From: an uncultured Conexibacter sp.
GTDB lineage: Bacteria; Actinomycetota; Thermoleophilia; Solirubrobacterales; Solirubrobacteraceae
Assembly (NCBI GenBank): GCA_964525715.1
Contig: CAZGJV010000010.1
Span: 18,567-82,566 of the forward strand
Direction of reading: 5' to 3'
DNA: 64,000 bases
In this document: piece by piece, positions 5,850-55,051 of the stretch
Position numbering within the stretch: position 1 is the stretch's first letter
Layout of the letters: the number at the start of each line of letters is the position of its first letter
The notes under the pieces: model-generated
Database searches by the model: none
What the model saw: only the letters and a program-made list of their open reading frames with translations
Told to the model about the DNA's origin: nothing
Translations under genes and position numbers: made by a program

Positions 5850-5853
5850 GCCG

Positions 5854-7345: not shown

Positions 7346-7363
7346 CGAAGGGAGCCCACGCGC

Positions 7364-15918: not shown

Positions 15919-15956
15919 GGATCAGACGATAGACGGCGCGATGCCCGCATCCGCCG

Positions 15957-16286
15957 CTACCGCACCTTGCTCCCGCTCGGGACCTGGGTCTCCGGCTGGA
16001 GCAGGACCGGCCGGCCGTCGCGATCGGCCGCGATGATCATGCCCTGGCTCTCGCAGCCGCGAATCACCCGCGGGTCGACGTTGAGCAGCACCGGCATCTG
16101 CCTGCCGCGCAGCGCGTCCGGATCGTCGAAGAACGGGGCCATCGCCGCCACGACCTGGCGCTGCTCGCCCGCGCCGACGTCGAACGTGAACCTGAGCAGC
16201 CGCTCGGCGCCCGCGACGCGCTCGACGCTCGTCACCGTTGCGATGCGGATGTCGAGCCGCGCGAAGTCCTCCCAGGTCACGTTCAT
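15957..16286 (-). CDS. tRNA-binding OB-fold protein (Trbp111/CsaA/MetRS C-terminal domain family)
   Basis: TWEDFARLDIRIATV, RQVVA, LLNVDPRVIRGCESQGMIIAA, GSKVR match the tRNA_bind domain. Confidence 0.9.
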   Translation of the reverse strand: MNVTWEDFARLDIRIATVTSVERVAGAERLLRFTFDVGAGEQRQVVAAMAPFFDDPDALRGRQMPVLLNVDPRVIRGCESQGMIIAADRDGRPVLLQPETQVPSGSKVR

Positions 16287-16295
16287 CGGCCGACG

Positions 16296-17834
16296 CTACC
16301 GCTGCCTACCCGCGATTGCACGCGCCAGCCGCGGCAGCGCCGCGCGATCCAGCTTGCCCGACGACGTGTGCGGCAGCTCCGGCACGAGCATCAGCCGCTG
16401 CGGCACCATGTAGGGCGCAAGCGCCGCGGCGGCGGCCGCGCGCACGGCCCGAACGACGGACGCCTCCTCCTGCCCCGGGCCCGGCACGAGCAGCGCCACG
16501 AGGAAGCCGTCGCCCCCCTCGGTCCGTGCGACGGTGACGGCGGCCGCGCTCACCTCGCGACACGCGCCCACGACGGCTTCGATCTCGCCGAGCTCGATGC
16601 GGTAGCCGCGCAGCTTCACCTGGTCGTCGTTGCGACCGACGTAGTCCAGCTCGCCGCCCGGCAGCACGCGTGCGAGGTCGCCGGTCCGGTACCAGCGCCG
16701 CGCGCCTCCGCCGACCGCGAGCTCGCGGAAGCGCTCCCGCGTCAACTCCGGCCGGTTGAGGTAGCCCTGCGCGACCCCGGCGCCGGCCACCCACATCTCC
16801 CCCACCTGCCCGTCCGCCACCGGCGAGAGACCGTCGTCCAGGACGGCCACCTCCAGATGCGGCAGCGCCCGGCCGATCGGCGACCGCGCAGCGTCGTCCG
16901 TCAGCTCCCCGAGCGGCTTCCAGGTGACGTGGACGGTCGTCTCGGTGATGCCGTACATGTTGACGAACGCCGGCGTCGAGCCGGCGGCGGCCGCGCGCTC
17001 GCGGAAGCGCCGCACGAGGCTCAGGTCGACGCCCTCGCCGCCGAAGATGACGTATCGCAGGGCGAGCGCGGGCGCCTCCTGCTCGTAGGCGCCGACCAGG
17101 CTCCGGAACGCCGACGGGATCTGGTTGAGCACGGTCACCGCGCGATCGGCCAGCAGCGCGAGCAGCTCGTCGGGGAGGCGCACGACGTCGGGCGCCACCA
17201 CCACGCAGCTGCCTCCGGTGGCGAGCGCCCCCCACAGCTCCCACACCGAGAAGTCGAACGCGTGGGAGTGGCAGAGCGTCCACACGTCCGCCGGCCCGAA
17301 CGCGAACAGCGGCAGCGCGTTGCGCAGCAGCGCGACGACGTTGGCGTGGCTGACCAGGACGCCCTTCGGCACACCGCTCGAGCCGGACGTGTAGATCACG
17401 TACGCGGGCGCGTCCGCTGCGACCTCCGGCAGCTCCCCCCGGGCGGCCGGGAGCGCGCCGGCGAGGCGCACGACCCCCACGCCCTCGGGGAGCAGGTGAT
17501 CGGCCGTGCCGTCGGAGACCACCTGGCCGATCTCGGCGTCGCCCAGGACGTGCTCGACCCGCGCGCGCGGGTGGGCCGGATCGAGCGGGACGTACGTCGC
17601 CGCCGCACGCATCGCGCCGAGGCTCGCAACCGCGACGTCGACGGTCCGGTCGAGCAGCAGTCCGACGCGGTGGCCCGGCCCGACGCCCGCCGCGATCAGC
17701 GTCAGAGCGAGGCGGCGGCTGGCGCGCTCCAGCTCCCGATAGGTGAGCGCGCGCTCCGCGTCGCGGACCGCGACCCGCTCGCCGTGCTCGGCGACCGACC
17801 GCAGGAACAGCTCGCAGAGGCTCTCCGGCCTCAT
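16296..17834 (-). CDS. Stand-alone NRPS adenylation domain (no carrier domain), predicted L-Thr
   Basis: A-domain cores YTSGSSGVPKG, FDFSVWE, NMYGITETTVH, YRTGD, QVKLRGYRIELGEIE, SGKLDR; the protein ends right after A10. Extracted code DFWNIGMVHK is the canonical Thr code. Confidence 0.9.
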   Translation of the reverse strand: MRPESLCELFLRSVAEHGERVAVRDAERALTYRELERASRRLALTLIAAGVGPGHRVGLLLDRTVDVAVASLGAMRAAATYVPLDPAHPRARVEHVLGDAEIGQVVSDGTADHLLPEGVGVVRLAGALPAARGELPEVAADAPAYVIYTSGSSGVPKGVLVSHANVVALLRNALPLFAFGPADVWTLCHSHAFDFSVWELWGALATGGSCVVVAPDVVRLPDELLALLADRAVTVLNQIPSAFRSLVGAYEQEAPALALRYVIFGGEGVDLSLVRRFRERAAAAGSTPAFVNMYGITETTVHVTWKPLGELTDDAARSPIGRALPHLEVAVLDDGLSPVADGQVGEMWVAGAGVAQGYLNRPELTRERFRELAVGGGARRWYRTGDLARVLPGGELDYVGRNDDQVKLRGYRIELGEIEAVVGACREVSAAAVTVARTEGGDGFLVALLVPGPGQEEASVVRAVRAAAAAALAPYMVPQRLMLVPELPHTSSGKLDRAALPRLARAIAGRQR

Positions 17835-17868
17835 CAGGCGCAGACGACGGACGTTCGCGCGCCGGCCC

Positions 17869-19368
17869 TCATGCGCCCTTCAGCTCGAGCTCCCGCCGGG
17901 CGCGCCGGGTGCCGATCCCGCCCGGGACGTTCGTCCGGCCGAGCGGCGAGTAGTCGTGCCGGTCGATCGGATCCTGCTTCGGATTGGCGATCGACTCGTT
18001 GCGGCGGCCGACCGTCTGCTTGACCTCGTCGCTCACGAACTGGAGCGCCATGCCATCGACGAACACGCTCCCGTCGTCTGACGGCGCGATCGTGCGCTCG
18101 CCCACGTTCAGCACGCCGAGGTCGCCGAGCCGCCCGAGCTGCTCGGAGAACCGCTCCAGCGGATCGACGCCGAAGCGGGCCGCGAACGCGGCCCGATCGA
18201 TCCCCTTCGACCGCAGCCCGAACATCATCGCGCGGCGCATCCGCTCGTCGTCGCTCAGCGTCGCCGCACGCCAGATCGGCTGCTCGCCGCGCTCGACCGC
18301 GTCGATGTACGGCGTCAGCCGGCACTCGTTGTAGAACTGCGTGCCGCCGACGTAGCCGAAGCCGCTCACGCCGAACGGCAGCAGGTTCGTGTCCTCGATG
18401 TCGTCGAACTTGCTCTCCTGCTGGCGCGAGTGTGTGGCGGTCTTCGCGTAGTACAGGACGGGGCCGCGCTGGAAGCCCTCGGCGTGCAGGATCGCCTCGG
18501 CCATCAGGTGCATGAGCAGGCGATCCTCCTCGCTGGGGAACAGCTCCGGCGACTTCGAGAACAGGTGCGTCACCGGGTCGGAGTGCTTGAACATCAGCGG
18601 GAAGACGTTGAACTTGCGCAGTCCCGCGTCGAGCAGCACCGCGATCGTCGCGTACCAGTTCTCGAGCGTCTGATGCGGGAGCCCGTAGATCAGGTCGACG
18701 TTGACGTTGTCGATCCCGCGCTCGCCGAGGATGTCGAGCATCGCGAAGACCTCGCCGCGCCCGTGGCCGCGATTGATCGTCGCGAGCACCTGCTCGTCCA
18801 TCGACTGCACGCCGAAGACGAAGCGGTTCGCTCCCCGCTCCCGCACTGCGTCGATGCGCTCGCCGTAGTCCGCGTGCCGCACGAGGCCGGGGTGCAGCTC
18901 GAACGTGACCTCCGCCGCGTCGTCCAGCTCGACGTGCTGCCAGAGCTGGTCGAACAGCGCCGCCAGCTCCTGCGGCTCGAGGTAGGAGGGCGTTCCACCG
19001 CCGAAGTAGGCCGAGTGCGCGCGGCGCGGGCCGCCGACGCGCTCGGTCGTCATGGCGATGTCGCGGTGCAGCGCGTCGAGGTAGCGCGTCACGCGCGAGG
19101 CCTGCGGCCGGATCTCCTTGGCGAAGTGGCAGAACGTGCACTGCTGCTCGCAGAACGGCAGGTGGACGTAGATGTTGCAGTTGGCGCTGGCCCCGGCCAG
19201 CACCTGCGACGGATCGGCCGGGCCCATCGCCTTGAGCGGCGGGTAGGTGCCGACGAGGTAGTACTCCAGCGGCCGCAGGTAGACGCCGGCACGTCGGAGC
19301 CCGTCCAGATCGATGTGAGCGGCCCGCTCGCGTGCCGCCTCGATCGCTTGATCGAACGTGAGTCTCAC
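17869..19368 (-). CDS. HemN-like (class C) radical SAM enzyme
   Basis: YVHLPFCEQQCTFC (CxxxCxxC), YFGGGTPS, FGVQS, NVDLIYGLPHQT and a HemN-type C-terminal domain. Confidence 0.9.
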   Translation of the reverse strand: MRLTFDQAIEAARERAAHIDLDGLRRAGVYLRPLEYYLVGTYPPLKAMGPADPSQVLAGASANCNIYVHLPFCEQQCTFCHFAKEIRPQASRVTRYLDALHRDIAMTTERVGGPRRAHSAYFGGGTPSYLEPQELAALFDQLWQHVELDDAAEVTFELHPGLVRHADYGERIDAVRERGANRFVFGVQSMDEQVLATINRGHGRGEVFAMLDILGERGIDNVNVDLIYGLPHQTLENWYATIAVLLDAGLRKFNVFPLMFKHSDPVTHLFSKSPELFPSEEDRLLMHLMAEAILHAEGFQRGPVLYYAKTATHSRQQESKFDDIEDTNLLPFGVSGFGYVGGTQFYNECRLTPYIDAVERGEQPIWRAATLSDDERMRRAMMFGLRSKGIDRAAFAARFGVDPLERFSEQLGRLGDLGVLNVGERTIAPSDDGSVFVDGMALQFVSDEVKQTVGRRNESIANPKQDPIDRHDYSPLGRTNVPGGIGTRRARRELELKGA

Positions 19369-19428
19369 CTCGTGCGGAACCTACCAGTTTCCGCACGCTA
19401 TTGTATTCTTTTGTATACGATAGTACGC
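19369..19428. promoter_or_regulatory. Divergent promoter region between the radical SAM gene and the glutamate mutase operon
   Basis: 60-nt AT-rich gap; TACGAT 7 nt before ATG 19429; tandem TTGTAT repeats (ttgtattcttttgtatac). Confidence 0.6.
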
Positions 19429-19968
19429 ATGGATGCGGTGTCGGAGCGTCCCAGGACCGCGCCGACGGACACGGCGGAGTCCGTCACCGCGCTCGCCGCG
19501 CTCGCGTCGCAGATCGCGCACGCGAGCTTGAGCGTGCTGATCGGCGTCCCGGGCGACGACGTCCACGTCGTCGCCAACAAGCTCGCCGAGACGATCCTCG
19601 CGTCGGTCGGCTACGCGGTCACGAACCTGGGCGTGCTGGTGCCGGCGGCCGAGCTGGTCGCGGCCGCCCGCGACCTGCGCCCGTCCGCGATCCTGCTGTC
19701 GTCGCTGAACGGGCACGCGCTGCTCAACTGCGGTTCCGTTCCACGGCTGCTGGCCGAGGCCGGCGAGGAGGTCCCCGTCTACGTAGGCGGCAACCTGTGC
19801 GTCGGTCGCACGGATTGGCCCCTGGTGCTGCGCCGCTTCGCGGGCCTCGGGTTCGCCCGCGTCTTCCCGCCGAGAACCGACCTGCTCGCAGGCGTCGCCG
19901 AGATCTCGCGCGAGCTGCTCCAGCCGCGAGTCGTCCACGCGATCCGTCGCAGCGGTGCGCCGGCGTGA
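19429..19968 (+). CDS. Glutamate (methylaspartate) mutase S/sigma subunit, cobalamin-binding
   Basis: B12-binding motif D-x-H (GDDVHVVANK), NLGV, SSLNGH, YVGGNL, GFARVF; translationally coupled to the E subunit. Confidence 0.9.
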   Translation: MDAVSERPRTAPTDTAESVTALAALASQIAHASLSVLIGVPGDDVHVVANKLAETILASVGYAVTNLGVLVPAAELVAAARDLRPSAILLSSLNGHALLNCGSVPRLLAEAGEEVPVYVGGNLCVGRTDWPLVLRRFAGLGFARVFPPRTDLLAGVAEISRELLQPRVVHAIRRSGAPA

Positions 19969-21410
19969 TCGCGCCCGACGCCTTCCTCGCCGCGCGCGCC
20001 CGCGTCCTGCAAAGCCATCCGAGCGGAGCGGAGGTCGACTTCGACGGCGGCGTGCGAACGCAGCGGTCGCTCGGCCCGCGGCAGCGCTTCCACCGGCTCA
20101 CCGCAGGGGCGCTGCGAAGCGGCGAGATGCTGTTGCAGCCGCGCGCGGGAGTCGCGACGATCGCCGGCCAGTCGGAGCTGCTGGGCCGCCTCGCCGGCGA
20201 GGGTGGAGCCGACGTCCTGCCGCTGACGATCGACAGCTTCACGCGACAGCTCGACTTCGCGCACGCGGACGCGCTGTGGCGCGAGGCCGAGGCGACCGCG
20301 ACCCCCGGGCTGCTCAACGGCTTCCCCGCGATCAGCGCGGGCGTGGCAGGATGCAACGCGGTCGTGCGCGCGTGCGACCGCGCGCTGCAGGTCCGCCACG
20401 GCGCGCCGGACGCGCGCCTGCTCGCGGAGGTCACGCTGGCCGCGGGCTGCAGCGCATTCGAGGGAGGCGGCATCACGTACTGCATCCCCTACTCGAAGAC
20501 CACGCCGCTCGAGCAGTCGCTGCGCTGGTGGGCGTACGTCGACCGGCTGTGCGGCCTCTACGCCGCGCACGGGGTCGTCGTCGAGCGCGAGGCGTTCGGC
20601 GCGCTCACCGGCATCATGATCCCGCCGTCGATCGCCGTCGCCTGCTCCGTGCTCGAGCTGCTGCTCGCGGCCGAGCAGGGCGTCGCGGCGTTCGCGCTCG
20701 GCATCGGCCAGGGCGGCGACCTGGTGCAGGACGCAGCCGCGATCAGGGCGCTCGACGTGGTCGGGCGCGCGTACCTGCGGCGCCACCGGCCGGCACATCG
20801 CGTACAGGTCAGCACGGTCTTCTACCAGTGGATGGGGCCGTTTCCGCGTGACGAGGCGGCCGCCGCGGCGATCATCGCGCTCGGCGCCGCCGCTGCCGTG
20901 GCGGGCGGCGCGACGCGCATGATCACGAAGTCCTGCGAGGAGGCGCACGGCGTGCCGGGAGCGGACAGCAACGCCGCCGGGCTGCGGCTCAGCCGCGCGA
21001 TGGCCTCGGCGCTGGCAGCGCATGCGTTCGCCGACCCGTCGCTGATCCGCGAGGAGCAGCACTGGATCGAGCGCGAGAGCCGCTGCCTGCTCGACAACGT
21101 GCTGCGGCTGTCCGAGAGCGGGTCGCTCGCCGACGGGATCTGCACCGCCTTCGACCGCGGCCAGCTCGACGTGCCGTTCGCTCCAAGCCTGGCGGTGCGC
21201 GGATCGGTCTGGACTCAGCGCGACGCGCGGCGCGCGATCCGCTACCGGGAGGTCGGACACCTCCCGTTCGACCGGGAGCTGCGCCAGCGCAACGATCGCG
21301 AGCTGGACCGACGGCGCGAGCGGGACGGGGACGTCGGAGCGACGCTGCGCGCGCTGGCCGGCGCGGTCGACGACATCTTCCCGATCCAGCCGTCGCGGTC
21401 TGCCGCGTAG
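19965..21410 (+). CDS. Glutamate (methylaspartate) mutase E/epsilon subunit
   Basis: QPRAGV, LPLTIDSFTR, LLNGFP, QVRHGAPDARLLAE, FEGGGITYCIPYSK, EREAFGALTG, QWMGPFP. GTG overlaps the S-subunit stop. Confidence 0.92.
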   Translation: MIAPDAFLAARARVLQSHPSGAEVDFDGGVRTQRSLGPRQRFHRLTAGALRSGEMLLQPRAGVATIAGQSELLGRLAGEGGADVLPLTIDSFTRQLDFAHADALWREAEATATPGLLNGFPAISAGVAGCNAVVRACDRALQVRHGAPDARLLAEVTLAAGCSAFEGGGITYCIPYSKTTPLEQSLRWWAYVDRLCGLYAAHGVVVEREAFGALTGIMIPPSIAVACSVLELLLAAEQGVAAFALGIGQGGDLVQDAAAIRALDVVGRAYLRRHRPAHRVQVSTVFYQWMGPFPRDEAAAAAIIALGAAAAVAGGATRMITKSCEEAHGVPGADSNAAGLRLSRAMASALAAHAFADPSLIREEQHWIERESRCLLDNVLRLSESGSLADGICTAFDRGQLDVPFAPSLAVRGSVWTQRDARRAIRYREVGHLPFDRELRQRNDRELDRRRERDGDVGATLRALAGAVDDIFPIQPSRSAA

Positions 21411-21418
21411 GACGGGGC

Positions 21419-24400
21419 GTGCCGGGTCCGTTCGACGCCGAGGATGCGCGCTACCGCGTCCTCGTCAACGGCGAGCAGCAGCACTCGCTGTGGCCGGACG
21501 GGGTCGACGTGCCGGCCGGATGGAGCGCCGTGTACGGCCCCGCCGGCCGTGCCGCATGCCTGCGGCACGTCGAGCGCAGCTGGAGCGACCTGCGCCCGGC
21601 GAGCCTCCGCCGCGCCACACCGGAGCCGTCCAGCGCGCGCGCCGGGTGCGTCCACGACGCCTTCGAGCGGTGCGCTGCGAGCGCGCCCGACGCGATCGCG
21701 CTCGTCGCAGCCGACGGTGCCGTGACCTACGGCGAGCTGAGCGCCGCGGCCGATCGCCTCGCCGCGGGCGTCGCGGCGGCGACGACGCGCGCGGAGGCGG
21801 TCGTCGGCATCTGCCTGGAGCGCGGCGTGGACCTCGTCGTCGCGCTGCTCGGCGTCCTGAAGGCGGGCTGCGCCTACGTCTGCCTCGACCCGACGTTCCC
21901 CGCCGCCCGGCGCGAGGAGATCCTGCTGGCCGCGCGCGCCGAGGCGCTGATCGCACGCGCCTGGCGGCCGTCCGCCGCCGCCCGGGAGCTCGCCGCGATC
22001 GACCCGCGCCCACAGGCGCACACGCCCGGCCTCGCGCCCCCCGCCGCGCGTGCGGTGCCCGACAGCCTCGCCTGCGTCCTGTTCACCTCGGGCTCGACCG
22101 GCACGCCGAAGGGCGTCGCGGTGCCCCACCGCGCCATCGTCGGCACGCTCGTGGGGCAGGACTACGCGGAGTTCGACAGCCGCTCGGTGTGGCTGCAGTC
22201 CGCGCCGATCTCGTGGGACGCCTTCCACCCCGAGCTGCTCGGTGCGCTGCTCCACGGCGGGACGTGCGTCATGCAGCCCGGCGAGGCGCCCGACCCGGCG
22301 CTGATGGCGGCGCTGGCCGCACGGCACGGGGTCACCGTCCTCAAGGCGTCGGCGAGCCTCTTCAACCACATGGTCGACGAGCATCCACAGCTGTTCCGGC
22401 AGGTCCGCCAGGCGATCACGGGCGGCGAGGCCCCCTCGATCCGGCATCTCGCCGAGCTGCGCCGGCTCGCTCCCGGCCTGCGGCTGACCAACGGCTACGG
22501 GCCGGTCGAGAGCATGGGCTTCACCACCGCCCACGACGTCACCGACGACGACCTCGCCTGCGGCGTGGTGCCGATCGGTCGTGCGGTCGCCGGCAAGCGG
22601 ATCCACGTCCTCGGCGAGGACCTGCGACCGGTGGCGCCCGGGGAGGTGGGCGAGATCCACGCGGCTGGCGTCGGCCTGGCGCGTGGCTACCTGGGGAGCC
22701 CCGCACTGACGGCCGAGCGCTTCGTCGCGAGCCCGTTCGGGCCGCCGGGCGAGCGGATGTACCGCACGGGCGACCTCGCCCGGGTGCGTCCCGACGGCGC
22801 GGTCGAGTACCTGCGCAGGAGCGACGACCAGCTGAAGATCCGCGGGTTCCGCGTCGAGCCCGCGGAGGTCGAGCGCGTGCTCGCAGGCCACGACGACGTG
22901 CGGCAGGTCGCGGTGGCGGTGCGGGACGACGGTCCCGCCGGCAGCGTCCTGGTCGCGTACGTCGTCGCGGCCGGGCGCGGCGGGCCCGACCTCGACGAGC
23001 TGCGGCGATTCGCTCGCTCGCGGCTCCCCGCGCACCTCGCGCCGGCGGTCTTCGTCGCGCTCGCGCAGCTGCCGCGGACCGCCGCCGGCAAGCTCGACCG
23101 GCGGGCGCTGCCACGGCCCGACTACGCGAGCGGCAACGGCGACGCCGCGACCCCGGACGAGGCCGTCCTCTGCGCCCTCTTCGCCGAGGTGCTCGGCGTC
23201 GCCGACGTCGGCACCGACGCGGACTTCTTCGCGCTCGGGGGCGAGTCGCTGCTCGCGCTGCGGCTGATCGGCCGGATCCGCTCGGAGCTGGACGTCGAGA
23301 TCGGCGCGCACGACCTGTTCGAGCGACCCTCCGCCGCCGGCCTGGCGCGGCGCGTCAGGAGCAGGGCGTCGGCGCGGCCGCCGCTGCACGCGCGCGAGCG
23401 GCCGCAGCGGGTCCCCCTGTCCGCGGCGCAGCTGCGGCTGTGGTTCCTCAGCCAGCTGGAGGACGGCGGCGCCAGCTACAACTGCCTGTACCTGCTGCAC
23501 CTGCGCGGGCGGCTGTCGGAGGTCGCGCTGGCCGACGCGCTCGCCGACGTGGTCGCGCGGCACGAGACGCTGCGCACGACCTTCCCGGTCGAGCGCGGCG
23601 AGCCGTGGCAGCGCGTGCTGCCGCCCGAGGCCGCCCGTCCCGCGCTCGTCCGCGTCGACTGCTCCGCGAGCGGGCTCGCGGCGGAGCTGCGCGCCGCCTC
23701 GCGCCACGCCTTCGACCTCGAGCGGGACCTCCCGATCCGCGCCCGCCTGCACCGGATCGCGCCCGACCACCACGCGCTGCTGCTCGTGCTCCACCACATC
23801 GCCACGGACGCCTGGTCGCGGCAGCCGTTGCTGCGGGACCTCGGCCGTGCCTACACGGCGCGCGCCGCGGGCCGGGCCCCCGCGTGGGAGCCGCTTCCGG
23901 TCCAGTACGCCGACTACGCCCTCTGGCACGCCGAGCTGTTGGGTGCCGACGGCGATCCGGCGAGCGTCGTGCGGGTGCAGGGCGAGCACTGGGCGCGCGC
24001 GCTCGCGGGCCTCCCGCGCGAGCTGGCGCTGCCGCGCGATCGCCCGCGCTCGAGCGCCGCGAGCCACGGCGCGGTCGGACGCGTCGAGCTCGACGTCCCC
24101 GCCGCGACGCACCTGCGCGTCGTCGAGCTCGCGCGAGCGAGCCGGGCGACGGCGTTCATGGTGCTGCAGGCAGCGGTCGCGGGCCTGCTGTCGCGCACCG
24201 GTGCCGGCGACGACATCGCGCTCGGCACGCCGATCGCCGGACGCACCGAGCCGGCGCTGGACCAGCTCGTCGGGTTCTTCGTCAACACGCTCGTGCTGCG
24301 CATGGAGGTCTCCGGCGACCCGTCGCTGCGCGAGCTCGTGCGCCGCGCACGCGAGGTCGACGTGGCCGCGTACGCGCATCAAGACGTCCCGTTCGACCGG

Positions 24401-24745: not shown

Positions 24746-24748
24746 CGC

Positions 24749-27598: not shown

Positions 27599-27639
27599 CG
27601 CGCTTAATGTATACTACGGTATTCAGTCCTCCAAGCCGG
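27599..27639. promoter_or_regulatory. Very short divergent promoter region
   Basis: AT-rich ttaatgtatactacggtatt; minus-strand TACATT 7 nt before GTG 27598; plus-strand TATACT. Confidence 0.55.
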
Positions 27640-28947
27640 ATGCGGCCGATGCGCTTTCCGCTCTCCACCGCGCAGCGCCTGCAGTGGGATCGCTACCACG
27701 GGGGCGCGCCGCGCAACGCGTACAACCTGTCGGTGCCCTTCGAGATCGAGGGCGACGTGGAGATGGACGCGCTGGAGCGCGCCGTGCTCGGCCTGCTGCG
27801 GCGCCACGAGGTGCTGCGAGCGAGGTTCGAGGACGATCTCGGCGAGCCGACCCAGATCGTCGAGACGATGCCCGCGTCCGTCCTGCAGGTCGTCGAAGGC
27901 CCCGACGCGCCGCGGGCATTCGCGCAGGCGCGCGAGGAGCCCTTCGACCTGCGGCGCGGCGGGCTCGTGCGTGCCGTCGCGGAGCCGCTCCCGGACGGCT
28001 GCCGGCTGCTGCTCGTGCTCCACCACATCGTCGCCGACGGCCGCTCGCTGATCACCGTCGTCGAGGACGTCGTCGCGCTGTACGCGTCGGAGGCGCGCGC
28101 CGGGTCCGGCGCGCCGCGACCGCTGCGCGCGCAGTTCCTGCCGTGGGCGCGCCAGCAGCACAACTGGCTCGACTCCCCGCAGGCCGCCGCCCGCCTGGAG
28201 GGGATCGCGCGGCGGCTGCGCGGCGCTCCCGCGCTCTGCACGCTGGCGCCCGATCACCCGCGACAGGAGGTGCAGCAGTTCGTCGGTCGGGAGCTCGCGT
28301 CGGAGCTGGAGGGCACGCTGGTGGAGGACGCGGCGCGCACCGCGCGAACGTTGCGGGCGACTCCGTTCATGGTCTGGTGCGCCGCACTGATCGTGACGCT
28401 CGCGCGCTGGACCGGGCTGGAGGACGTCGTGGTGGCGACCCCCGTCGGGTCGCGCCCCGCGGCGGCGTTCGACGACGTCGTCGGATGCTTCGTGACGCGG
28501 GGGCTGGTGCGCTGTCCGGTCCCTCCGTCCACCACCTTCGCGGACGTGGTCCAGCGCGTGCGCGCGGAGGTGCTGGAGTCGATCGAGCAGCGCGACATCC
28601 CGCTGGGCCGCGTCTGCGAGCGGCTCGGCGTGCAGCCCTCGCGAGCGTGGAGCCCGCTCGCGCAGGTGCTGTTCGCGCACGAGGCGCCGCTGCATGCGCC
28701 GATCACCGCGAGCGGGCTGCGCTGGACGGTGCCGCCGCCGGAGGTCGACGAGGCGGGCGAGGGCCCAATCCGCGCGGACGTCGTCGTGACCGTCCGTCAC
28801 GCGTTCGACGGAGCCGCGCTGATCGTCTCGTGGGCGACGGACCTCTACGACCGCGACACGATGCGTCGCTTCGCGGCGAGCTACCGCGAGACGGCTCGCG
28901 CGACGATGGCGGACCCTTTCGGGCCCGTGCGGCCGGCGGCGGACTGA
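27640..28947 (+). CDS. Stand-alone NRPS condensation domain
   Basis: FPLSTAQ, AYNL, RHEVLRARF, EPFDL, intact HHIVADG, VGCFV. Start is ATG 27640 or 27649. Confidence 0.88.
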   Translation: MRPMRFPLSTAQRLQWDRYHGGAPRNAYNLSVPFEIEGDVEMDALERAVLGLLRRHEVLRARFEDDLGEPTQIVETMPASVLQVVEGPDAPRAFAQAREEPFDLRRGGLVRAVAEPLPDGCRLLLVLHHIVADGRSLITVVEDVVALYASEARAGSGAPRPLRAQFLPWARQQHNWLDSPQAAARLEGIARRLRGAPALCTLAPDHPRQEVQQFVGRELASELEGTLVEDAARTARTLRATPFMVWCAALIVTLARWTGLEDVVVATPVGSRPAAAFDDVVGCFVTRGLVRCPVPPSTTFADVVQRVRAEVLESIEQRDIPLGRVCERLGVQPSRAWSPLAQVLFAHEAPLHAPITASGLRWTVPPPEVDEAGEGPIRADVVVTVRHAFDGAALIVSWATDLYDRDTMRRFAASYRETARATMADPFGPVRPAAD

Positions 28948-28951
28948 GCGC

Positions 28952-31900
28952 TCACGCGCGCGCGGCCTCGACGGCCGCGGCCAGCGCGCCGACCGTCGCG
29001 CCCTCGAACAGCACCCGCAGCGACAGCTCGACGGCGAACGCCTCCTGCACCCGCGCCATCATCTCCGCCACGAGCAGCGAATGCCCGCCCAGCTCGAAGA
29101 AGTCGTCCTCCACCCCCACCGCATCCACGCCAAGCAGCTCCCGCCACACGCCGCACAAGCACTCCTCCACCGCCGTCCGCGGCGCGACGGACGCACCACC
29201 GCGCAACGGCCCCTCCGGCGCCGGCAGCGCACGCCGGTCGACCTTCCCGCTCGGCGTCGACGGCAGCCGCTCCAGCAGCGCCACGCGCGACGGGACCATG
29301 AACTCCGGCAGCCGCCCCCGCAGCCACGACCGCAGCGCCTCGCCGTCCACTCCGTCCTCGACGACCGCGTACGCCACCAGCCGCCGGTCTCCCGCGACGT
29401 CCTCGCGCGCGACCACGGCCGCCTCCCGCACCCCCGCGTGCGTGGCCAGCGCCGCCTCGACCTCGCCCGGCTCCACGCGGTAGCCCCGCACCTTCACCTG
29501 CTCGTCCGTCCGCCCCAGGAACTCCAGGCGACTGTCCCCGCGCCACCGCGCCACGTCGCCCGAGCGATACAGCCGCCCGCCGCCGAAGGGAGCGTCCACG
29601 AACCGCTCGGTCGTCAGCTCCGCACGGCCCAGGTACCCGCGCGCCACACCCACCCCGCCGATGCACAGCTCGCCGGCCACGCCGACCGGCAGCGGCCGCA
29701 ACCCCTCGTCCAGCACGAAGCACGTCACGTTCCCGATCGGACGACCGATCGGCGGCTCGCCCTCGACGTCCGCGTCGAGCTCGGCGATCGTCGCCACGAT
29801 GCTCGCCTCGGTCGGCCCGTAGGCGTTGAACAGGCGCCGGCCGCGCGCCCACCTCGACGCCAGCTCGCGCGGACAGCGCTCGCCGCCCACGACGATCGTC
29901 CGCAGCGACGGCACGCGCCGCGGGTCGACGGTCCTCAGCACCGATGCGGGCAGCGCCGCGATCGTGATCCCGAGCTCGCGCCACACGTGCGGGTCGTGCG
30001 GCTCGGCGTGCGGCAGGCAGAGCGTCGCGCCGTGCAGCAGCGCGATCAGGATCTCCCACAGGCACGGGTCGGTGCTGAGCGAGGCGAACTGCAGCACGCG
30101 ATCGCCGGGACCGACGTCGAACAGCGCACTCTGATGGCAGGCGAGGTTGGTGAGCCCGCGGTGCTCGACCATCACGCCCTTGGGGGTGCCGGTCGAGCCG
30201 GAGGTGTAGATCACGTAGGCGAGGCTGTCCGCCGTCGCCAGCGGCGGCGGCGTCGTCACGGGCTGCTCGGCGATCAGCGGCCGGTCGCGATCGAGCGAGA
30301 CGACGGGCGCGTCGCTCGCGGGCAGCACGCGCGCCGACGCGCTGTCGCTCACCACCACCCGCGCCCCGGCGTCCGCGAGCATGAACGCGACGCGCTCGGC
30401 CGGATACGAGGGATCGACCGGCACGTACGCACCACCGGCCTTCAAGATCCCCAGCACGCCGACGACCAGCTCGACCGAGCGCGACACGCAGATCCCGACG
30501 AGCGTCTCGCGCCCGACCCCCAGCGAGCGCAGGTGCCACGCCAGCTGGTTGGCGCGGCGATCGAGCTCGCCGTAGCCGATCTCGCGATCCCCGTGACGCA
30601 CGGCGATCGCCTCCGGCGAGCGCGCCGCCTGCTCCGCCACCAGCTCGTGCACGCGGCGATCCGGAACCTCGCCCACCGACCCGCTCCACTCCACCAGCAC
30701 CCGCTCGCGCTCCGCCTCCCGCAGCAGCGACAGCTCGCCGACCGCCCGTCCCGGCTCCGCCACGGCGGCGTCGACCAGCCGCGCGAAGTGCTCGCCCATG
30801 CGCGCGACGGTCGCCTCGTCGAACAGGTCGGTCGCGTAGGTGACGTTGATCGTCAGCTCCCCGTCCAGCTCTCGCGCCGACCACTCCATGTCGAAGCGCG
30901 CGCGACCGGTCGAGCAGCCGGTGAACGCCTCGACCCCCATGCCCGCCGCCCCGAGCTCCGCCGCCGGGCCGGCCTGACGATCGAGCCGGCCGGACTCGAC
31001 CAGCTGGAGCATCACCTGCACGAGCGGATGCCGGCTCACGTCGCGGACGGGCTGCAGCTCGTCGACGAGCCTGTCGAACGGCAGGTCCTGATGCGCATAG
31101 GCGTCGAGCGACGCTGCTCGCACGCGCGCGAGCAGCTCGCGGAAGCTGGGGTCGCCGGACAGGTCGCCGCGCAGCACGAGCGTGTTGACGAAGAACCCGA
31201 TCGTCCGCTCGACCTCGGCCCACGAGCGCCCCGCCGCCGGCACGCCGACGACCACGTCGTCACCGGCCCCGTAGCGCGACAGCAGCAGCTCGAAGACCGC
31301 CGTCAGCACCATGAACAGCGTCACCCCCTCACTGCGCGCAAGCTCCCTGAGGGCGTCGGTCGCCTCCTTGCCGATCCGGAAGGTCACCGTCGCGCCGCGG
31401 TACGTGGGCATCGCGGGCCGCGGGCGATCGGTCGGCAGCTCCAGCGCCAGCGGGGCTCCCCGCAGCTGCTCGCGCCAGTACGCGAGCTGCCCGTCGAGCA
31501 GCTCGCGATCGAGCGATCCGCGCTGCCACACGGCGAAGTCGGCGTACTGGAGCGGCGGTGCGCCGAGCGGCGACGAGCGCCCCTCCACACCCGCGCGGTA
31601 GAGCGCGGCGACCTCGTCGAGCCAGACGTCCCACGACCAGCCGTCGAAGACGATGTGATGCGTCACGAACCACAGCACATGCTCCCGCTCACCCAACCGC
31701 ACGAGCCCCGCACGCACCAGCCGGTCCCGCTCCAGGTCGAACGGCCGCGCACCCTCCCCGCCGACGATCTCACGCACCCGCGACGCGAGGTCCCCATCCT
31801 CGCCGGAGACGTCCACGAGCGGCAACGACGACGTCCACGGCTCGTGCACGATCTGCCGCGGGCGCCCGCCGACGCTCGCGAAGCGCGTCCGCAGCACCTC

Positions 31901-34099
31901 ATGCCGCGCGACGACCTCGCCTAAGGCCCGCTCCAGCGCCCTCACGTCGAGCGGCCCCGTCAAGCGGACCGCGTCGCACACGTTGTAGAACGCGTTCCCC
32001 GGCACCAGCCGATCCAGGAACCACAACCGCTGCTGCCCGAACGACAACGGCACCACCTCAGGCCGCGAGACCGGCGCCAACGGCGGAGCCGCCGGAGCGC
32101 GCGGCACCTCCGCGGCGGCTTCGGCCTCGAGCAGCTCGGCGAGCGCCGCCACCGTCGGGTGGTCGAACAGCGCCCGCACGGACAACTCGACGCCGAGCAG
32201 CTTCCGCACCCGATACCGCAGCTGCACCACCAGCAGCGAATGCCCGCCCAGCTCGAAGAAGTCGTCCTCCACCCCCACCGCATCCACGCCAAGCAGCTCC
32301 CGCCACACGCCGCACAAGCACTCCTCCACCGCCGTCCGCGGCGCGACGAACGCGCCGGCCGCCTGCTCCGCGACCGGCTCCTCCGCACGACGGTCCGGCA
32401 CCTCGTCCCGCAGCGACAGCTCGCCGACCGACCGCCACGGCTCCGCCACCGCTGCGCCGATCAGCTGGACGAAGCCCTCCACCATCCCCATCGCCGTCAC
32501 CTCGTCGAACAGATCGGTCGCGTAGCTCACGCCGGCGACCAGCTCGCCGTCGACGTCCCGCACCGCCCAGTCCATGTCGAAGCGCGCGCGACCGGCCTGC
32601 CATCCCGCGACCGCCTCGACGCGCAGGCCCACCGCCGCGAGCTCGCCGGCCGGGCCGTCCCGGCCCTCGGCGCGCGGATCGAGCGGGCCGGGCTCGATCA
32701 GCTGGAACATCACCTGCACCAGCGGATGCCGGCTCAGGTCGCGAACGGGCTGCAGCTCCTCGACCAGCCGGTCGAACGGCAGGTCCTGATGCGCGTACGC
32801 CCCGAGCGACGCCTCCCGCACCCGGCCCAGCAGCTCGGAGAAGGTTGGGTCCCCGGACAGGTCGCCGCGCAGCACGAGCGTGTTGACGAAGAACCCGATC
32901 GTGTGCTCGACCTCGGCCCACGAGCGCCCCGCCGCCGGCACGCCGACCAGCACGTCGTCGCCGGCGCCGTGACGAGACAGCAGCAGCTCGAAGACCGCCG
33001 TCAGCGCCATGAACGGCGTGACACCCTCCCGGCGCGCGAGGTCCTTCAGCGCCTCGCTCAGCTCGCGCCCGAGCCCGCGGCTCACGCTCGCGCCGCGATA
33101 CGTGGGCATCGCGGGCCGTGCGCGATCGGCCGGCAGCTCCAGCACCAGTGGCGCCCCGCGCAGCGTCTCGCGCCAATACGCAAGCTGCCCCTCGAGCAGC
33201 TCGCCCTCCAGCCACCTGCGCTGCCACACGGCGAAGTCGGCGTACTGCACCGGCAACGGCTCCAGCGGCGAGGAGCGGCCCTCCACGCTCGCTCGGTACA
33301 GGGCGGCCACCTCGCCCACCAGCACCTCCCACGACCAGCCGTCGAAGACGATGTGATGCGTCACGAACCACAGCACGTGCTCGCGCTCGCCCAACCGCAC
33401 GAGCCCCGCACGCAGCAGCCGACCGTGCTCCAAGTCGAACGGCCGCGCGCCCTCCCCGCCGACGATCTCACGCGCCAGCGACTCGACGTCCCCGCCGTAC
33501 CCCGACACGTCGAGCAGTGCCGGTGCCGGCGTCCACGGATCCTCCACGACCTGCCGCGGACGGCCGTCACTGTCGACGAAGCGCGTCCGCAGCACCTCAT
33601 GCCGCGCGACGACCTCGCCCACCGCCCGCTCCAGCGCCCCCACGTCCAGCGCGCCAGTCAGGCGCACCGCGTCGCACACGTTGTAGAACGCGTTCCCCGG
33701 CACCAGCCGATCCAGGAACCACAACCGCTGCTGCCCGAACGACAACGGCACCACCGCAGGGCGCGGGAGCGGCACCAACGTCGGAGCCGCGGGCTCACCG
33801 GACGCACCCGACGCGTGCTCGACCGCGTCCGCCAGCCCGGCGACGGTCGGATGGTCGAACAGCACACGCACCGGCAGGTCGACCCCGAACAGCTCCCGCA
33901 GCCGATAGCGCAGCTGCGCCACGAGCAGCGAGTGCCCACCCAACTCGAAGAAGTCGTCCTCCACCCCCACCGCACCCACGCCGAGCAGCTCGGCCCACAG
34001 CGCGCACAGCCGCTCCTCCAGCGGGCTGCGCGCAGCCACCAGCTCACCGCCGACGACCCACCGGCCCTCCGGCTCGGATGCGTTCGGCAGGTCGCTCAT
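28952..34099 (-). CDS. NRPS T-C-T-C-A-T (about 1715 aa), no thioesterase
   Basis: Start MSDLPN overlaps the MFS stop (ATGA). Three DDFFELGGHSLL carrier motifs, two THHIVFDGWS C domains and one A domain (code DPWAVGAIVK, hydrophobic/aromatic-like); ends after the last T. Confidence 0.92.
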   Translation of the reverse strand: MSDLPNASEPEGRWVVGGELVAARSPLEERLCALWAELLGVGAVGVEDDFFELGGHSLLVAQLRYRLRELFGVDLPVRVLFDHPTVAGLADAVEHASGASGEPAAPTLVPLPRPAVVPLSFGQQRLWFLDRLVPGNAFYNVCDAVRLTGALDVGALERAVGEVVARHEVLRTRFVDSDGRPRQVVEDPWTPAPALLDVSGYGGDVESLAREIVGGEGARPFDLEHGRLLRAGLVRLGEREHVLWFVTHHIVFDGWSWEVLVGEVAALYRASVEGRSSPLEPLPVQYADFAVWQRRWLEGELLEGQLAYWRETLRGAPLVLELPADRARPAMPTYRGASVSRGLGRELSEALKDLARREGVTPFMALTAVFELLLSRHGAGDDVLVGVPAAGRSWAEVEHTIGFFVNTLVLRGDLSGDPTFSELLGRVREASLGAYAHQDLPFDRLVEELQPVRDLSRHPLVQVMFQLIEPGPLDPRAEGRDGPAGELAAVGLRVEAVAGWQAGRARFDMDWAVRDVDGELVAGVSYATDLFDEVTAMGMVEGFVQLIGAAVAEPWRSVGELSLRDEVPDRRAEEPVAEQAAGAFVAPRTAVEECLCGVWRELLGVDAVGVEDDFFELGGHSLLVVQLRYRVRKLLGVELSVRALFDHPTVAALAELLEAEAAAEVPRAPAAPPLAPVSRPEVVPLSFGQQRLWFLDRLVPGNAFYNVCDAVRLTGPLDVRALERALGEVVARHEVLRTRFASVGGRPRQIVHEPWTSSLPLVDVSGEDGDLASRVREIVGGEGARPFDLERDRLVRAGLVRLGEREHVLWFVTHHIVFDGWSWDVWLDEVAALYRAGVEGRSSPLGAPPLQYADFAVWQRGSLDRELLDGQLAYWREQLRGAPLALELPTDRPRPAMPTYRGATVTFRIGKEATDALRELARSEGVTLFMVLTAVFELLLSRYGAGDDVVVGVPAAGRSWAEVERTIGFFVNTLVLRGDLSGDPSFRELLARVRAASLDAYAHQDLPFDRLVDELQPVRDVSRHPLVQVMLQLVESGRLDRQAGPAAELGAAGMGVEAFTGCSTGRARFDMEWSARELDGELTINVTYATDLFDEATVARMGEHFARLVDAAVAEPGRAVGELSLLREAERERVLVEWSGSVGEVPDRRVHELVAEQAARSPEAIAVRHGDREIGYGELDRRANQLAWHLRSLGVGRETLVGICVSRSVELVVGVLGILKAGGAYVPVDPSYPAERVAFMLADAGARVVVSDSASARVLPASDAPVVSLDRDRPLIAEQPVTTPPPLATADSLAYVIYTSGSTGTPKGVMVEHRGLTNLACHQSALFDVGPGDRVLQFASLSTDPCLWEILIALLHGATLCLPHAEPHDPHVWRELGITIAALPASVLRTVDPRRVPSLRTIVVGGERCPRELASRWARGRRLFNAYGPTEASIVATIAELDADVEGEPPIGRPIGNVTCFVLDEGLRPLPVGVAGELCIGGVGVARGYLGRAELTTERFVDAPFGGGRLYRSGDVARWRGDSRLEFLGRTDEQVKVRGYRVEPGEVEAALATHAGVREAAVVAREDVAGDRRLVAYAVVEDGVDGEALRSWLRGRLPEFMVPSRVALLERLPSTPSGKVDRRALPAPEGPLRGGASVAPRTAVEECLCGVWRELLGVDAVGVEDDFFELGGHSLLVAEMMARVQEAFAVELSLRVLFEGATVGALAAAVEAARA
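29073..29189. repeat. 117-bp exact direct repeat, copy 1 (T3 carrier domain)
   Basis: Identical to 32232-32348. Confidence 0.9.
31968..32057. repeat. 90-bp exact direct repeat at the start of the duplicated C domains
   Basis: Identical to 33666-33755; the two C domains stay highly similar along their length. Confidence 0.88.
32232..32348. repeat. 117-bp exact direct repeat, copy 2 (T2 carrier domain)
   Basis: Identical to 29073-29189. Confidence 0.9.
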
Positions 34100-35562
34100 C
34101 GCCTCGCCGTCTCCGCCGGACCGAGCAGCGGCGAGCGCACGAGCTCCACCGCCGACTCCGCCTTCGCCGGGCGCCCGGCGACCAGCAGCGCGGCGAGCGC
34201 CACGCCGAGCAGCGCCACGCCGGCATCGAGCAGCAGCCCGTCGTGCAGCGCATGGACGAACGCCTCGCGCACGGCGGTCGTGGCCCCTCCGGACATCTGC
34301 GCTCCGCCCGTACGTGCCTGGATCAGCGCACCCAGCGCGGCGAGGCCGAAGGCACCCCCGAGCGTGCGGGTGGTCGACAGCACGCCCGAGGCGACGCCGC
34401 CCTTGCTCGCCTCGATCGCGTTCATCGCCGCCGTGCTCGTCGGCGACGTCACGAAGCCGAGACCGACCCCCATCAGGGCGAACGCTCCGAGCAGCAGCGT
34501 GAGCGAGCCCTCGACCCCGACGCGGGAGAGCCACACGAGCGACCCCGCGACGACGAGCAGGCCCCAGGACATCAGCCGCCGCGGTCCGACGACGTCTGTC
34601 AGACGACCCGCGACCGGGCCGGCAGCGGTCACGGTCACGGTCGCCGGGAGGAAGCACAGGCCGGCCTTCAGCGGCGAGTAGCCCGCGACGTCCTGCATGT
34701 ACAGCGCGAGGAAGAAGTACATCGAGACCATCGAGAACGCCGCGGTCAGGCCGACGAGGTTGGCGCCGAGGAACGAGCGCGAGCGAAAGCACGCGAAGTC
34801 GACCATCGGCACGCGGCTGCGCCGCTCGATCCGCACGAACGCGACGAGCGCCACGGCCGCGGTCGCGAGCAGCGACAGCTCGCGGGGCGAGCCCCAGCGC
34901 CAGGCGTCGCCCTGGATCAGCGCCAGCATCGCCGTGACGAGCGCGAGCGCCAGGGCGAGCGCGCCCGGCACGTCGAGGCGCCGCTGGACCGTACGGTCGC
35001 GCGACTCCGGCGTCGTCTGCAGCGTCAGTGCGACCGCCGCCGCCGCGACCGGCAGGTTGAGCAGGAAGATCGCGCGCCAACCGACCGTCTGGACGACGAG
35101 GCCGCCGACCACCGGCCCGATCAGCAGCGCCGTCCCCGAAACGCCCGACCACATCCCGATCGCCTTGCCGCGCTCGCCCGGCACAAAGGCGCTCGAGATG
35201 ATCGGCAGCATCGGCGGCATCATCAGGGCGGCGGCGGCGCCCTGGACTGCACGCCACGCGATCAGCCAGGCGTCGTCCGGAGCGCACGCGATCGCGCAGC
35301 TGGCGGCTGCGAACAGGCCGATGCCGAGCAGGAAGCAGCGACGCCGTCCGACCACATCCGCAAGCCGGCCGCCGGCCACCAGCAGCACCGCGAACGTCAG
35401 CGTGTACGCGTTGATCGTCCACTCGAGCGCCGACGTGGGGACGTCCAGGCTCCGCTGGATCGACGGCAAGGCGACGTTGAGGACCGTGCTGTTGAGCATC
35501 AGCATGAACAGGCCGCAGCTCATCGCGCCGAGCGTCCACCAGGGACGGTGCCGCACGGTCAC
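34096..35562 (-). CDS. DHA2-family MFS exporter of the NRPS cluster
   Basis: LNVALPSI, WTINAYTL, GRLADVVGRRR, WRAIFLLNLP, about 14 TM helices; coupled to the NRPS start. Confidence 0.92.
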   Translation of the reverse strand: MTVRHRPWWTLGAMSCGLFMLMLNSTVLNVALPSIQRSLDVPTSALEWTINAYTLTFAVLLVAGGRLADVVGRRRCFLLGIGLFAAASCAIACAPDDAWLIAWRAVQGAAAALMMPPMLPIISSAFVPGERGKAIGMWSGVSGTALLIGPVVGGLVVQTVGWRAIFLLNLPVAAAAVALTLQTTPESRDRTVQRRLDVPGALALALALVTAMLALIQGDAWRWGSPRELSLLATAAVALVAFVRIERRSRVPMVDFACFRSRSFLGANLVGLTAAFSMVSMYFFLALYMQDVAGYSPLKAGLCFLPATVTVTAAGPVAGRLTDVVGPRRLMSWGLLVVAGSLVWLSRVGVEGSLTLLLGAFALMGVGLGFVTSPTSTAAMNAIEASKGGVASGVLSTTRTLGGAFGLAALGALIQARTGGAQMSGGATTAVREAFVHALHDGLLLDAGVALLGVALAALLVAGRPAKAESAVELVRSPLLGPAETARR

Positions 35563-35603
35563 GTCAGGTCAGGTCCAGGAATATTCACCCACATAGGGGG
35601 ACA

Positions 35604-35626
35604 ATATCCATGAACAATATGGATAT
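35604..35626. promoter_or_regulatory. Candidate operator upstream of the MFS-NRPS operon
   Basis: Perfect inverted repeat ATATCCAT-N7-ATGGATAT in an AT-rich stretch. Confidence 0.5.
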
Positions 35627-35644
35627 CAATCTGCTTTTGCTGTC

Positions 35645-35880
35645 CCGACACGGCGCGTGTCGAGCGACAGCATCCAGTCGTTGACACGGTGCGGCGGGTG
35701 GAAGACTGTCATCTCGTCGACGGCCGCTTCGAGCACGCCGAGGCGGGCTGAGAGTCTGCCGGCCGCCGGTCTGCCAGCGCGAGATCGTCTACGGCGTGGC
35801 GTCGAGCAGCGCCGCGACGTCGCGGGCGCTCAGGCCGCCGCGGTCGCAAAGCAGCACGAGCCGGTCGAACGCCGGCCCGA
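35645..35880 (-). pseudogene. Degraded Xre/MbcA(DUF2384)-like antitoxin HTH gene
   Basis: Reads DRGGLSARDVAALLDATP*TISRWQTG (HTH with an in-frame TAG at 35789-35791), then after a frameshift LGVLEAAVDEMTVFHPPHRVNDWMLS. Confidence 0.5.
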
Positions 35881-36092
35881 ACTCGATCGCGCAGCACTCC
35901 CCAGCCGAGCAACGTCAATCGAGGTCGACACCGGCGTCGCCGAGATTACGTGCGAGATCGCCGTCGATCACGCCGCGCCCGCTTGTTCCCGAGGACTCTG
36001 CTTGTTCCCTCGTCCGATACCCGACGTATGGTGTGACACCGGCTCGGGTCCGACAGTGCCGATTTGCAGGTGTTTCCTGCGGAACTCCCCAG

Positions 36093-55009: not shown

Positions 55010-55051
55010 CGCTCCTCCTTACTCCAGCAGACAAAGGAATCCGAACCGATC

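Follow-up and report, generated by a model that had tools for sequence, protein, structure and literature searches.

Glutamate mutase supplies 3-methylaspartate in the pathways to streptolydigin and friulimicin. In vicenistatin-type biosynthesis the same supply is attributed to a two-subunit, B12-dependent glutamate mutase (PMC5785472, in excerpt), a precedent that a first-pass annotation of the DNA studied here had rightly invoked. The adenylation (A) domain of streptolydigin SlgN1, a fusion of MbtH and A (PMC10510592, in excerpt), activates (2S,3S)-β-methyl-Asp (PMC11253843, in excerpt). HemN-like radical S-adenosylmethionine (SAM) enzymes of class C, to which Blm-Orf8 belongs (PMC10114718, in excerpt), transfer a SAM-derived methylene radical onto an sp2 carbon, giving a methyl or cyclopropane group, and in the case of NosN a methylene ester is closed by a Glu carboxylate (PMC10114718 and PMC6050322, both in excerpt). 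Here we describe a nonribosomal peptide synthetase (NRPS) cluster that combines relatives of these enzymes. It lies in 64,000 nucleotides (hereafter the window) of contig CAZGJV010000010.1, positions 18,567 to 82,566, from an uncultured Conexibacter sp. (GCA_964525715.1). The cluster is a real, well-bounded and apparently complete orphan NRPS cluster, and in the genomes, plasmids and literature searched its full gene combination was found only here. It falls outside the streptolydigin, vicenistatin, lipopeptide, bleomycin and glycopeptide families and works like other trans-loaded NRPSs, borrowing the unit of SlgN1 and mutase. Judged from sequence, it is probably an intact split-module line without thioesterase (TE) for an exported and apparently undescribed MeAsp-His-Thr-aromatic tetrapeptide, in which His and Thr may be swapped and to which one carbon is added.

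A bounded cluster of ten intact genes

Open reading frame (ORF) calls, GC content by codon position and family scans define ten genes, all intact, that extend from 15,957 to 35,562 in five units on alternating strands (−, +, −, +, −). The first unit comprises a HemN-like class C-type enzyme with Radical_SAM and HemN_C domains (17869..19368), a free A domain (16296..17834) and, as its last gene, a stand-alone tRNA-binding OB-fold protein of the Trbp111/MetRS C-terminal type (15957..16286; PF01588), all on the minus strand. Divergently transcribed on the plus strand are the B12-binding S subunit of glutamate mutase (19429..19968; above the NF002612 and below the TIGR01501 cut-off), the E subunit (19965..21410; TIGR01503, 447.7 bits, cut-off 390) and a starter module consisting of MbtH, A, carrier (T) and condensation (C) domains (21419..24745). 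They are followed by a protein with an altered C domain, C*-A (24749..27598, minus strand), and by a free C domain (27607..28947, plus strand). The last unit, again on the minus strand, encodes a T-C-T-C-A-T synthetase of 1,715 aa (28952..34099), whose start at 34,099 overlaps the stop of an MFS/DHA2 exporter gene (34096..35562; TIGR00711 above cut-off). According to Pfam, the cluster contains four A domains, four T domains (with the Ser motif in each), five C-type domains and one fused MbtH; TE, reductase (R), epimerization (E), heterocyclization (Cy) and methyltransferase (MT) domains, acyl ligases, P450s and regulators were not found among the cluster genes. In gene set, positions, strand order and number of A and T domains, the first-pass annotation was thus correct. 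With A, T and C domains of intact core motifs and a phosphopantetheinyl transferase in the host (PF01648 match on C24, 226-aa ORF), the cluster has the features of a thiotemplated NRPS. It is not collinear, having two A-less carriers, a free A domain, a free C domain and neither TE nor R.

The cluster occupies a slot of 20,153 bp (15937..36089) that extends from a core alpha/beta-hydrolase gene to the 3′ end of tRNA-Pro(TGG) (36092..36166, minus strand), the sole Rfam match and the right border of the island. Beyond the tRNA on the right and 15,936 on the left, genes conserved in the genus follow. We compared the tRNA-adjacent DNA of eight genus relatives. Six of them (G015, G010, G014, G007, G026, G005) carry 2.5–5.2 kb of unrelated DNA between hydrolase and tRNA; in G021 the contig ends, and for G018 the stretch compared does not reach the left flank. 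In G015 both flanks are 94–96% identical and the 20-kb island is absent. These limits match the extent of about 20 kb proposed earlier, and the tRNA-binding gene and the exporter gene therefore belong to the cluster. The position at a tRNA 3′ end and the variability of the slot among relatives are those of a tRNA-targeted element; an integrase was not found among the island ORFs (Pfam), and the tRNA end is single-copy in the window, leaving no att duplicate. Since the tRNA-Pro(TGG) 3′ end is present in several copies in G018 (C43:68600-106300) and a relaxase-like gene occupies the slot in G010, the site is an insertion hot spot of the genus. Short tRNA-adjacent DNA (35672-36090) is common to G018, G010 and G007. 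The island has a GC content of 74.1% compared with 72.4% for the host genome assembly (3.64 Mb, completeness 94.8%), GC3 is 0.92–0.96 across the eight mutase, radical SAM and NRPS genes checked, and codon use is host-like.

The sequencing runs bearing this DNA are rhizosphere metagenomes of a single year, possibly of one campaign; no RNA run was listed among them, which says nothing about expression. Contigs from four other runs gave depth in 30 of 30 bins, with long pieces showing few or no differences; none of them reaches across the whole region, and of the duplicated T-C stretch (about 31,200–33,900) the listed pieces cover only a part. An ENA cluster member is a copy of the 1,715-aa NRPS with one substitution, and full-length variants of five other cluster proteins exist among independent cluster members. 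Thirteen coding variants, hand-picked after exclusion of dense blocks and of positions likely to stem from other organisms, comprised seven synonymous and six non-synonymous changes, a number too small to reveal selection. At the DNA level, the two T-C copies share 75–88% identity over the aligned repeats. Because they are only 76% identical as protein, they do not represent a collapsed or doubled repeat, and an old duplication would fit better than an assembly error.

Predicted monomers and assembly

Both mutase subunits align with the solved Clostridium enzyme. The E subunit does so over 470 residues and keeps three Arg, one Glu, two Tyr and one Lys, which we take to be the substrate-binding residues; the S subunit retains D-x-H, whose His is presumably the cobalt-binding ligand, with the next Gly replaced by Ala. 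Family models, cobalt-ligand His and substrate arginines together identify the pair as a B12 glutamate mutase (GlmS/GlmE). For MutL/GlmL no PF13941 match was found in the genome, and for methylaspartate ammonia-lyase the PF07476 matches are all partial and lie on other contigs (best 27.3 bits, cut-off 27). As neither gene lies beside the mutase, the locus is not that of the catabolic methylaspartate pathway, from whose operon, in the example compared, it differs in MutL and ammonia-lyase content. The co-transcription of mutase and MbtH-A and the lack of MutL and of a strong ammonia-lyase match favour a biosynthetic role, in which the enzyme would convert Glu to 3-methylaspartate. A PduO-type B12 adenosyltransferase and three other B12 mutases are present in the host.

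A two-subunit B12 glutamate mutase is likewise part of the starter cassette of vicenistatin and sceliphrolactam (VinH/VinI/VinN), but our cluster lacks the decarboxylase, VinK/VinM-type genes and a polyketide synthase (PKS), and its E subunit is only 31% identical to the Streptomyces macrolactam-type one. In quick IQ-TREE and FastTree analyses it grouped with six metagenomic proteins (support 99–100) in a clade separate from the catabolic, the Streptomyces-cluster and the Pseudonocardiaceae NRPS-linked mutases; the trees are unrooted and their deeper order is unresolved. The members of this small clade (P0122-P0127, P0135; six aligned) share 51–66% identity with the protein of the window. Recruitment straight from fermentative GlmE was considered and lost weight once the Pseudonocardiaceae NRPS-linked mutases had been added, the clade being distinct and its branching unresolved. 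Another comparison is with mutase-containing acidic lipopeptide NRPS loci, which we take to be of the friulimicin/malacidin type: there, too, the mutase adjoins the NRPS, and two of them (L224, L229) have A-less T-C units. In contrast to these loci, our cluster has a far shorter line with no acyl ligase or starter C domain, and its A domain is of the SlgN1 type whereas theirs is of the DLTK type; they in turn lack the radical SAM and tRNA-binding genes.

The starter module shares with SlgN1 (PDB 4GR4/4GR5) the N-terminal MbtH-A fusion and clade membership. SlgN1 is also its best solved relative, with 482 bits compared with 314 for the next single domain (the 463 bits of LgrA are the sum of two domains), and eight of ten code residues are alike (DAPKIGGGFK in the cluster, DALQIGGGFK read from the alignment for SlgN1). 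Unlike SlgN1, the cluster protein continues into T and C and has Pro239 and Lys278 instead of Leu and Gln, and the cluster as a whole is a pure peptide line in which neither a PKS nor a tetramic acid step occurs. A Lys at position 278 is characteristic of pockets that bind Asp. The predicted substrate of MbtH-A is β-methylaspartate. The last A domain of the line has the code DPWAVGAIVK; its closest domains carry DAWTIAAVC/DASTIAAIC-type codes, presumably Phe/Tyr-type, and its PDB matches include TycA and GrsA, so that it is likely a Phe/Tyr-like domain for an aromatic or bulky residue. The codes of the free A domain (DFWNIGMVHK) and of C*-A (DSALIAEVWK) are exactly those listed for Thr and His, respectively (PMC12283262, in excerpt). 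The monomers named in the first-pass annotation, MeAsp, Thr, His and a hydrophobic or aromatic residue, are therefore supported as predictions.

The domains C1, C2, C3 and the free C retain HHxxxD (HHIATDA in the starter module, HHIVADG in the free C), and among solved structures the best matches of the C domains that were searched are of the ordinary L-L type and not of the dehydrating AmbE type. In C*, the motif reads HRTLLDE and the C-lobe is shorter by about 25 residues. Among 852 aligned C domains HRxxxDE was not one of the 15 commonest motifs; in the kistamicin X-domain this motif is described as inactivating (PMC6565677 and PMC11546977, both in excerpt), and C* thus shares the change from HHxxxDG with the glycopeptide X-domains Tcp12 and KisL (PMC6565677, in excerpt). 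In contrast to an X-domain, C* scores higher with ordinary C domains than with X-domains, precedes an A domain and not a TE, does not stand in the terminal module and has no P450 partner in the island. It is predicted to be an independently inactivated C domain and not an X-domain orthologue. Docking for loading in trans would be the simpler role; stand-alone modules of ramoplanin and enduracidin biosynthesis are described to need an N-terminal extension for this purpose (PMC8949500, in excerpt). A complex prediction for C* with the radical SAM enzyme (score 0.00) weighs neither way, and a profile search with C*-A retrieved only long multi-module NRPSs and was uninformative. Another HRxxxDE C domain precedes an A-T in the relative G011 (L178:9722-10684).

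In the pathway that we favour, 3-methylaspartate formed from Glu by the B12 mutase would be loaded by MbtH-A onto T1, as deduced from SlgN1. MeAsp must be the first residue because no C domain precedes its module and its own C domain follows. His would be activated by C*-A and passed on in trans, in the simplest case to T2 at the N-terminus of the large synthetase, C* itself being a dead docking relic and the C-terminal C of the starter protein performing the condensation. The free A domain would load Thr on the internal A-less T3. Carriers T2, T3 and T4 are 65–76% identical in pairwise comparison; His on T2 and Thr on T3 seems somewhat the better choice over the reverse because C*-A plus the N-terminal T reads as a split module. 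The C-A-T end module would then append the aromatic or bulky residue. As the cluster contains no thioesterase, the free C domain is the candidate release enzyme, which by elimination would transfer the chain onto an amine or cyclise it. Finally, the radical SAM enzyme would move a SAM-derived CH2 or CH3 group to an sp2 carbon, most likely of the imidazole or the aromatic ring, and the MFS pump would export the product.

The HemN-like enzyme and accessory genes

The 27 aligned members of the enzyme's subfamily show little or no variation in CxxxCxxC and in the residues that match the SAM sites of HemN; we take the latter to form two SAM sites. The model of the enzyme (pLDDT 91) has HemN as its closest fold (TM 0.68/0.78), so that CxxxCxxC, HemN_C, HemN fold and two SAM sites place it among the HemN-like class C enzymes. 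It scores below the cut-offs for HemN, HemW, HutW and HemZ, reaching 182 of 325 and 162 of 205 bits of the HemN and HemW equivalog cut-offs, and is thus not a true HemN or HemW. At the position where the HemW/HemN substrate motif would lie, the enzyme has HSRQQESKF; the HemW motif HNxxYW (PMC10114718, in excerpt) is absent. The subfamily has invariant motifs of its own (GxYPPLK, FPLxFK, HSxQQxK). HemN fold, CxxxCxxC, SAM-site residues and location in a biosynthetic cluster are shared with NosN/NocN, TbtI, Jaw5 and C10P. NocN is the second PDB match, to which only the N-terminal ~190 residues of our enzyme align, and, in contrast to C10P, our enzyme has no partner methyltransferase. Cyclopropanation of dehydro-Thr in the manner of Jaw5 was also weighed and given little credit, as the searched C domains are unlike the dehydrating type.

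The 120 best protein matches are 41–56% identical, the query itself aside, and the subfamily amounts to about a hundred or more proteins from Actinomadura, Saccharopolyspora, Streptomyces, Bradyrhizobium and Mesorhizobium, the two rhizobial genera contributing many members; no characterised member or assigned reaction was found. A metagenome scan with the alignment gave two subfamily loci among the 80 matches listed, and a scan of genome contigs gave two loci. Since the relatives lie in unrelated clusters, the protein seems to be a mobile tailoring enzyme of an apparently unstudied subfamily. One recurrent cluster (L096/L097, L102/L103 and L094/L095 in G706, G464 and G784; similar layout in G559 and G467) contains an aminotransferase, a ThDP enzyme, KAS III, an acyl carrier protein, HMG-CoA synthase, enoyl-CoA hydratases, a ketosynthase, a P450 and an FAD oxidoreductase. 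In a second recurrent context the radical SAM gene lies between two genes of unknown function, followed by ATP-grasp, FemAB-like and MFS genes (L001:8997-18101). A related arrangement in G670 (L104/L105) has unknown genes on both sides, FemAB-like and MFS genes and, in addition, a desaturase, a pyridoxal phosphate enzyme, peptidase C26, AurF and an Asn synthase. On a Rhizobium gallicum plasmid a subfamily member accompanies a 397-aa unknown gene, a GNAT and an RND efflux system (L086:11941-18020), another relative lies near a B12-radical SAM-glycosyltransferase fusion, a class III aminotransferase, a SAM decarboxylase and a branched-polyamine synthase domain (L006:608-13077), and one is located behind a T-TE. 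Carbazole-type pathways are the basis for linking an aminotransferase/ThDP context to aromatic substrates. By this analogy, the recurrent context hints at aromatic substrates of the radical SAM enzyme.

Beyond carbonyls, the only side-chain sp2 carbons of the predicted peptide are those of the imidazole and of the last residue's ring, and the HemN-like enzyme likely adds one carbon to the product. Free terminal C domains are also known from clusters of the bleomycin family. That family further shares the His code, a Thr module and a HemN-like methyltransferase with our cluster, the last likened by description to Blm-Orf8 (PMC10114718, in excerpt), and its His code is reported to accept β-OH-His (PMC12283262, in excerpt). 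In contrast to the bleomycin clusters, the island contains no PKS, Cy/Ox domains, Ser or Asn modules, glycosyltransferases or binding-protein resistance gene, and no bithiazole, glycosylation or binding-protein domains were found in it.

The tRNA-binding protein scores below the MetG-beta and CsaA cut-offs. All 26 genus relatives have one PF01588 match, which lies in a long ORF, and the host genome has two; the protein of the cluster is an extra, stand-alone copy. The DHA2-family exporter appears to be co-transcribed with the large NRPS gene, with a sigma70-like site at 35629-35601 ahead of it, and the presence of an exporter together with the lack of any uptake system points to an antagonistic role of the product and away from nutrient scavenging. 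The divergent units are separated by an AT-rich promoter region (19369..19428) with a perfect 9-bp inverted repeat at 19371-19397, between a −10-like element and the start of the radical SAM gene. It is predicted to form a hairpin (−18.6 kcal/mol, z −3.05) and might act as an operator or in translational control. Back-to-back AT-rich promoter-like islands at 19401-19431 and 27596-27625 both contain GTATAC, and a TAnnnT element 7 bases upstream of the starts of mutase S and C*-A suggests leaderless transcripts.

Outside the island, the window contains a core polysaccharide operon (4509-11055; UDP-sugar dehydrogenase, GT2, GlmS, fn3-GH18), with a second related stretch further along the contig, a ribonucleotide-reductase-small-chain/SCP2 fusion (46628-47923) and two tandem cytochrome c oxidase gene sets (54122-63726; COX2/COX1 twice, UbiA, COX3).

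Distribution and alternative products

Genome searches scored the best three to four candidates per genome, and Streptomyces genomes were covered only through the phylum draw and plasmids. Mutase E gave one weak match (E 4e-4) in 60 relatives and was found in 24 of 400 genomes of the class (all of one other family, at most 46% identical), in 107 of 401 genomes of a Pseudonocardiaceae sample and on 28 plasmids. The radical SAM subfamily was found in none of 400 phylum genomes, in seven genomes of the Pseudonocardiaceae sample and on four plasmids. At 12 of the 20 best mutase loci of that sample C domains lie within about 10 kb; a radical SAM or tRNA-binding gene was present at none of the 20. 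Among the 26 genus relatives, C domains were detected in 15, several of which have them in broken-up clusters where C or A domains stand alone, and 15 stretches from eight genus genomes showed often fragmented NRPS clusters in which mutase, radical SAM and tRNA-binding genes were missing. One genus stretch (L180:830-4891, G008) carries a free Thr A domain (52% identical), a free T and a free C domain. An orphan cluster on a plasmid of Streptomyces sp. NBC_01216 (L187:11573-21254) combines a glutamate mutase and a 'lantibiotic dehydratase' (possibly PEARL-like) with an acyl carrier protein, AMP-binding and ATP-grasp proteins, GTP cyclohydrolase II and a free C domain. The same gene set was not found in the genomes, plasmids and literature searched, in which subscription journals were thinly covered and MIBiG was not covered; within these limits, no characterised cluster of this kind is recognised, as stated in the first-pass annotation. 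Its description as unusual holds for the combination, which was found only here, and not for the parts: each has precedent, split NRPSs and pairs of mutase and NRPS being common. The novelty is the combination.

Several observations weigh against the tetrapeptide pathway. The exact code DAPKIGGGFK was absent among 119 relatives examined, and as SlgN1-like relatives have many codes, relatedness to SlgN1 is not enough to assign the substrate; DPWAVGAIVK has no exact match among its 30 best matches. The similarity of T2–T4 means that sequence does not tell which A domain in trans loads which carrier. Release by the free C is argued from TE absence alone, and another contig has a weak TE-family match. 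One active-site His of mutase E is Tyr, the same change being present in six aligned clade members. CobS was not found in the host genome at its 94.8% completeness, so B12 would have to be salvaged. None of the seven radical SAM-positive Pseudonocardiaceae-sample genomes is among the 107 with a mutase, so co-occurrence gives no comparative support for linking the two, and the tRNA-binding gene has no place in the pathway.

The same genes might make another product by iterative or branched use of the free C and T-C units, or by rearrangement after assembly (cyclised, with dehydrated Thr, or cross-linked), so that no plain linear tetrapeptide would result. We regard this as a minority reading, although the strongest of the rivals. 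Five C-type domains for three peptide bonds and interchangeable-looking carriers speak for it, as do the frequency of non-canonical NRPS logic (PMC8949500, in excerpt) and the free A domains of streptothricin biosynthesis (PMC11546977, in excerpt), whereas the A and T domains, four of each, simply pair off one to one, the searched C domains match the ordinary L-L type rather than the dehydrating one, and E, Cy and TE are missing from the cluster. It is unlikely that the radical SAM enzyme, free Thr A domain and tRNA-binding gene form a separate cassette, or that the enzyme acts on a free amino acid, with the NRPS product left unmodified on-line. These genes have their own operon, the subfamily roams ThDP/KAS III/β-branching, ATP-grasp, rhizobial plasmid and T-TE contexts, and G008 has the 52% identical free Thr A domain in another context; however, they share the divergent promoter region and the island with the mutase-NRPS operon, and one of the two A-less carriers needs this A domain.

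Slightly less credit still is given to a silent or decaying acquired cluster from which no product is made. The A-less modules, the HR motif and deletion of C*, the lack of TE, regulator and MutL and the restriction to one species would agree with decay, but all reading frames are open and their codon use resembles that of the host, the variant proteins of other assemblies are full length with one to four substitutions (three shorter cluster members excepted), free A domains equal A-less carriers in number, and promoter-like AT-rich islands are retained between the units. A bolder version of the tetrapeptide pathway, which we hold to be improbable, lets the radical SAM enzyme place a methylene, as NosN does, on the His imidazole or the C-terminal ring, where the free side-chain carboxylate of MeAsp would capture it to give a TE-free macrocyclic ester; C* would be an X-domain-like landing pad of independent origin on which the radical SAM enzyme takes the place of a P450, the product a Cu/Ni-binding peptide and the tRNA-binding protein a means of self-protection. 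A free amine together with His at position 2 or 3 would bind copper or nickel, and MeAsp-Thr-His would be ATCUN-like.

The cluster overturns nothing: orphan NRPS clusters abound, and none of its parts is without precedent. It is nevertheless compact (20 kb), sharply bounded and derived from a high-GC lineage beyond the usual producers, so that synthesis and expression of the entire cluster are feasible. How its two distinct free A domains select between two near-identical carriers makes a clean test case of relevance to NRPS engineering, and the predicted peptide would give the HemN-like radical SAM subfamily, for which no assigned reaction was found, a substrate that can be foreseen.

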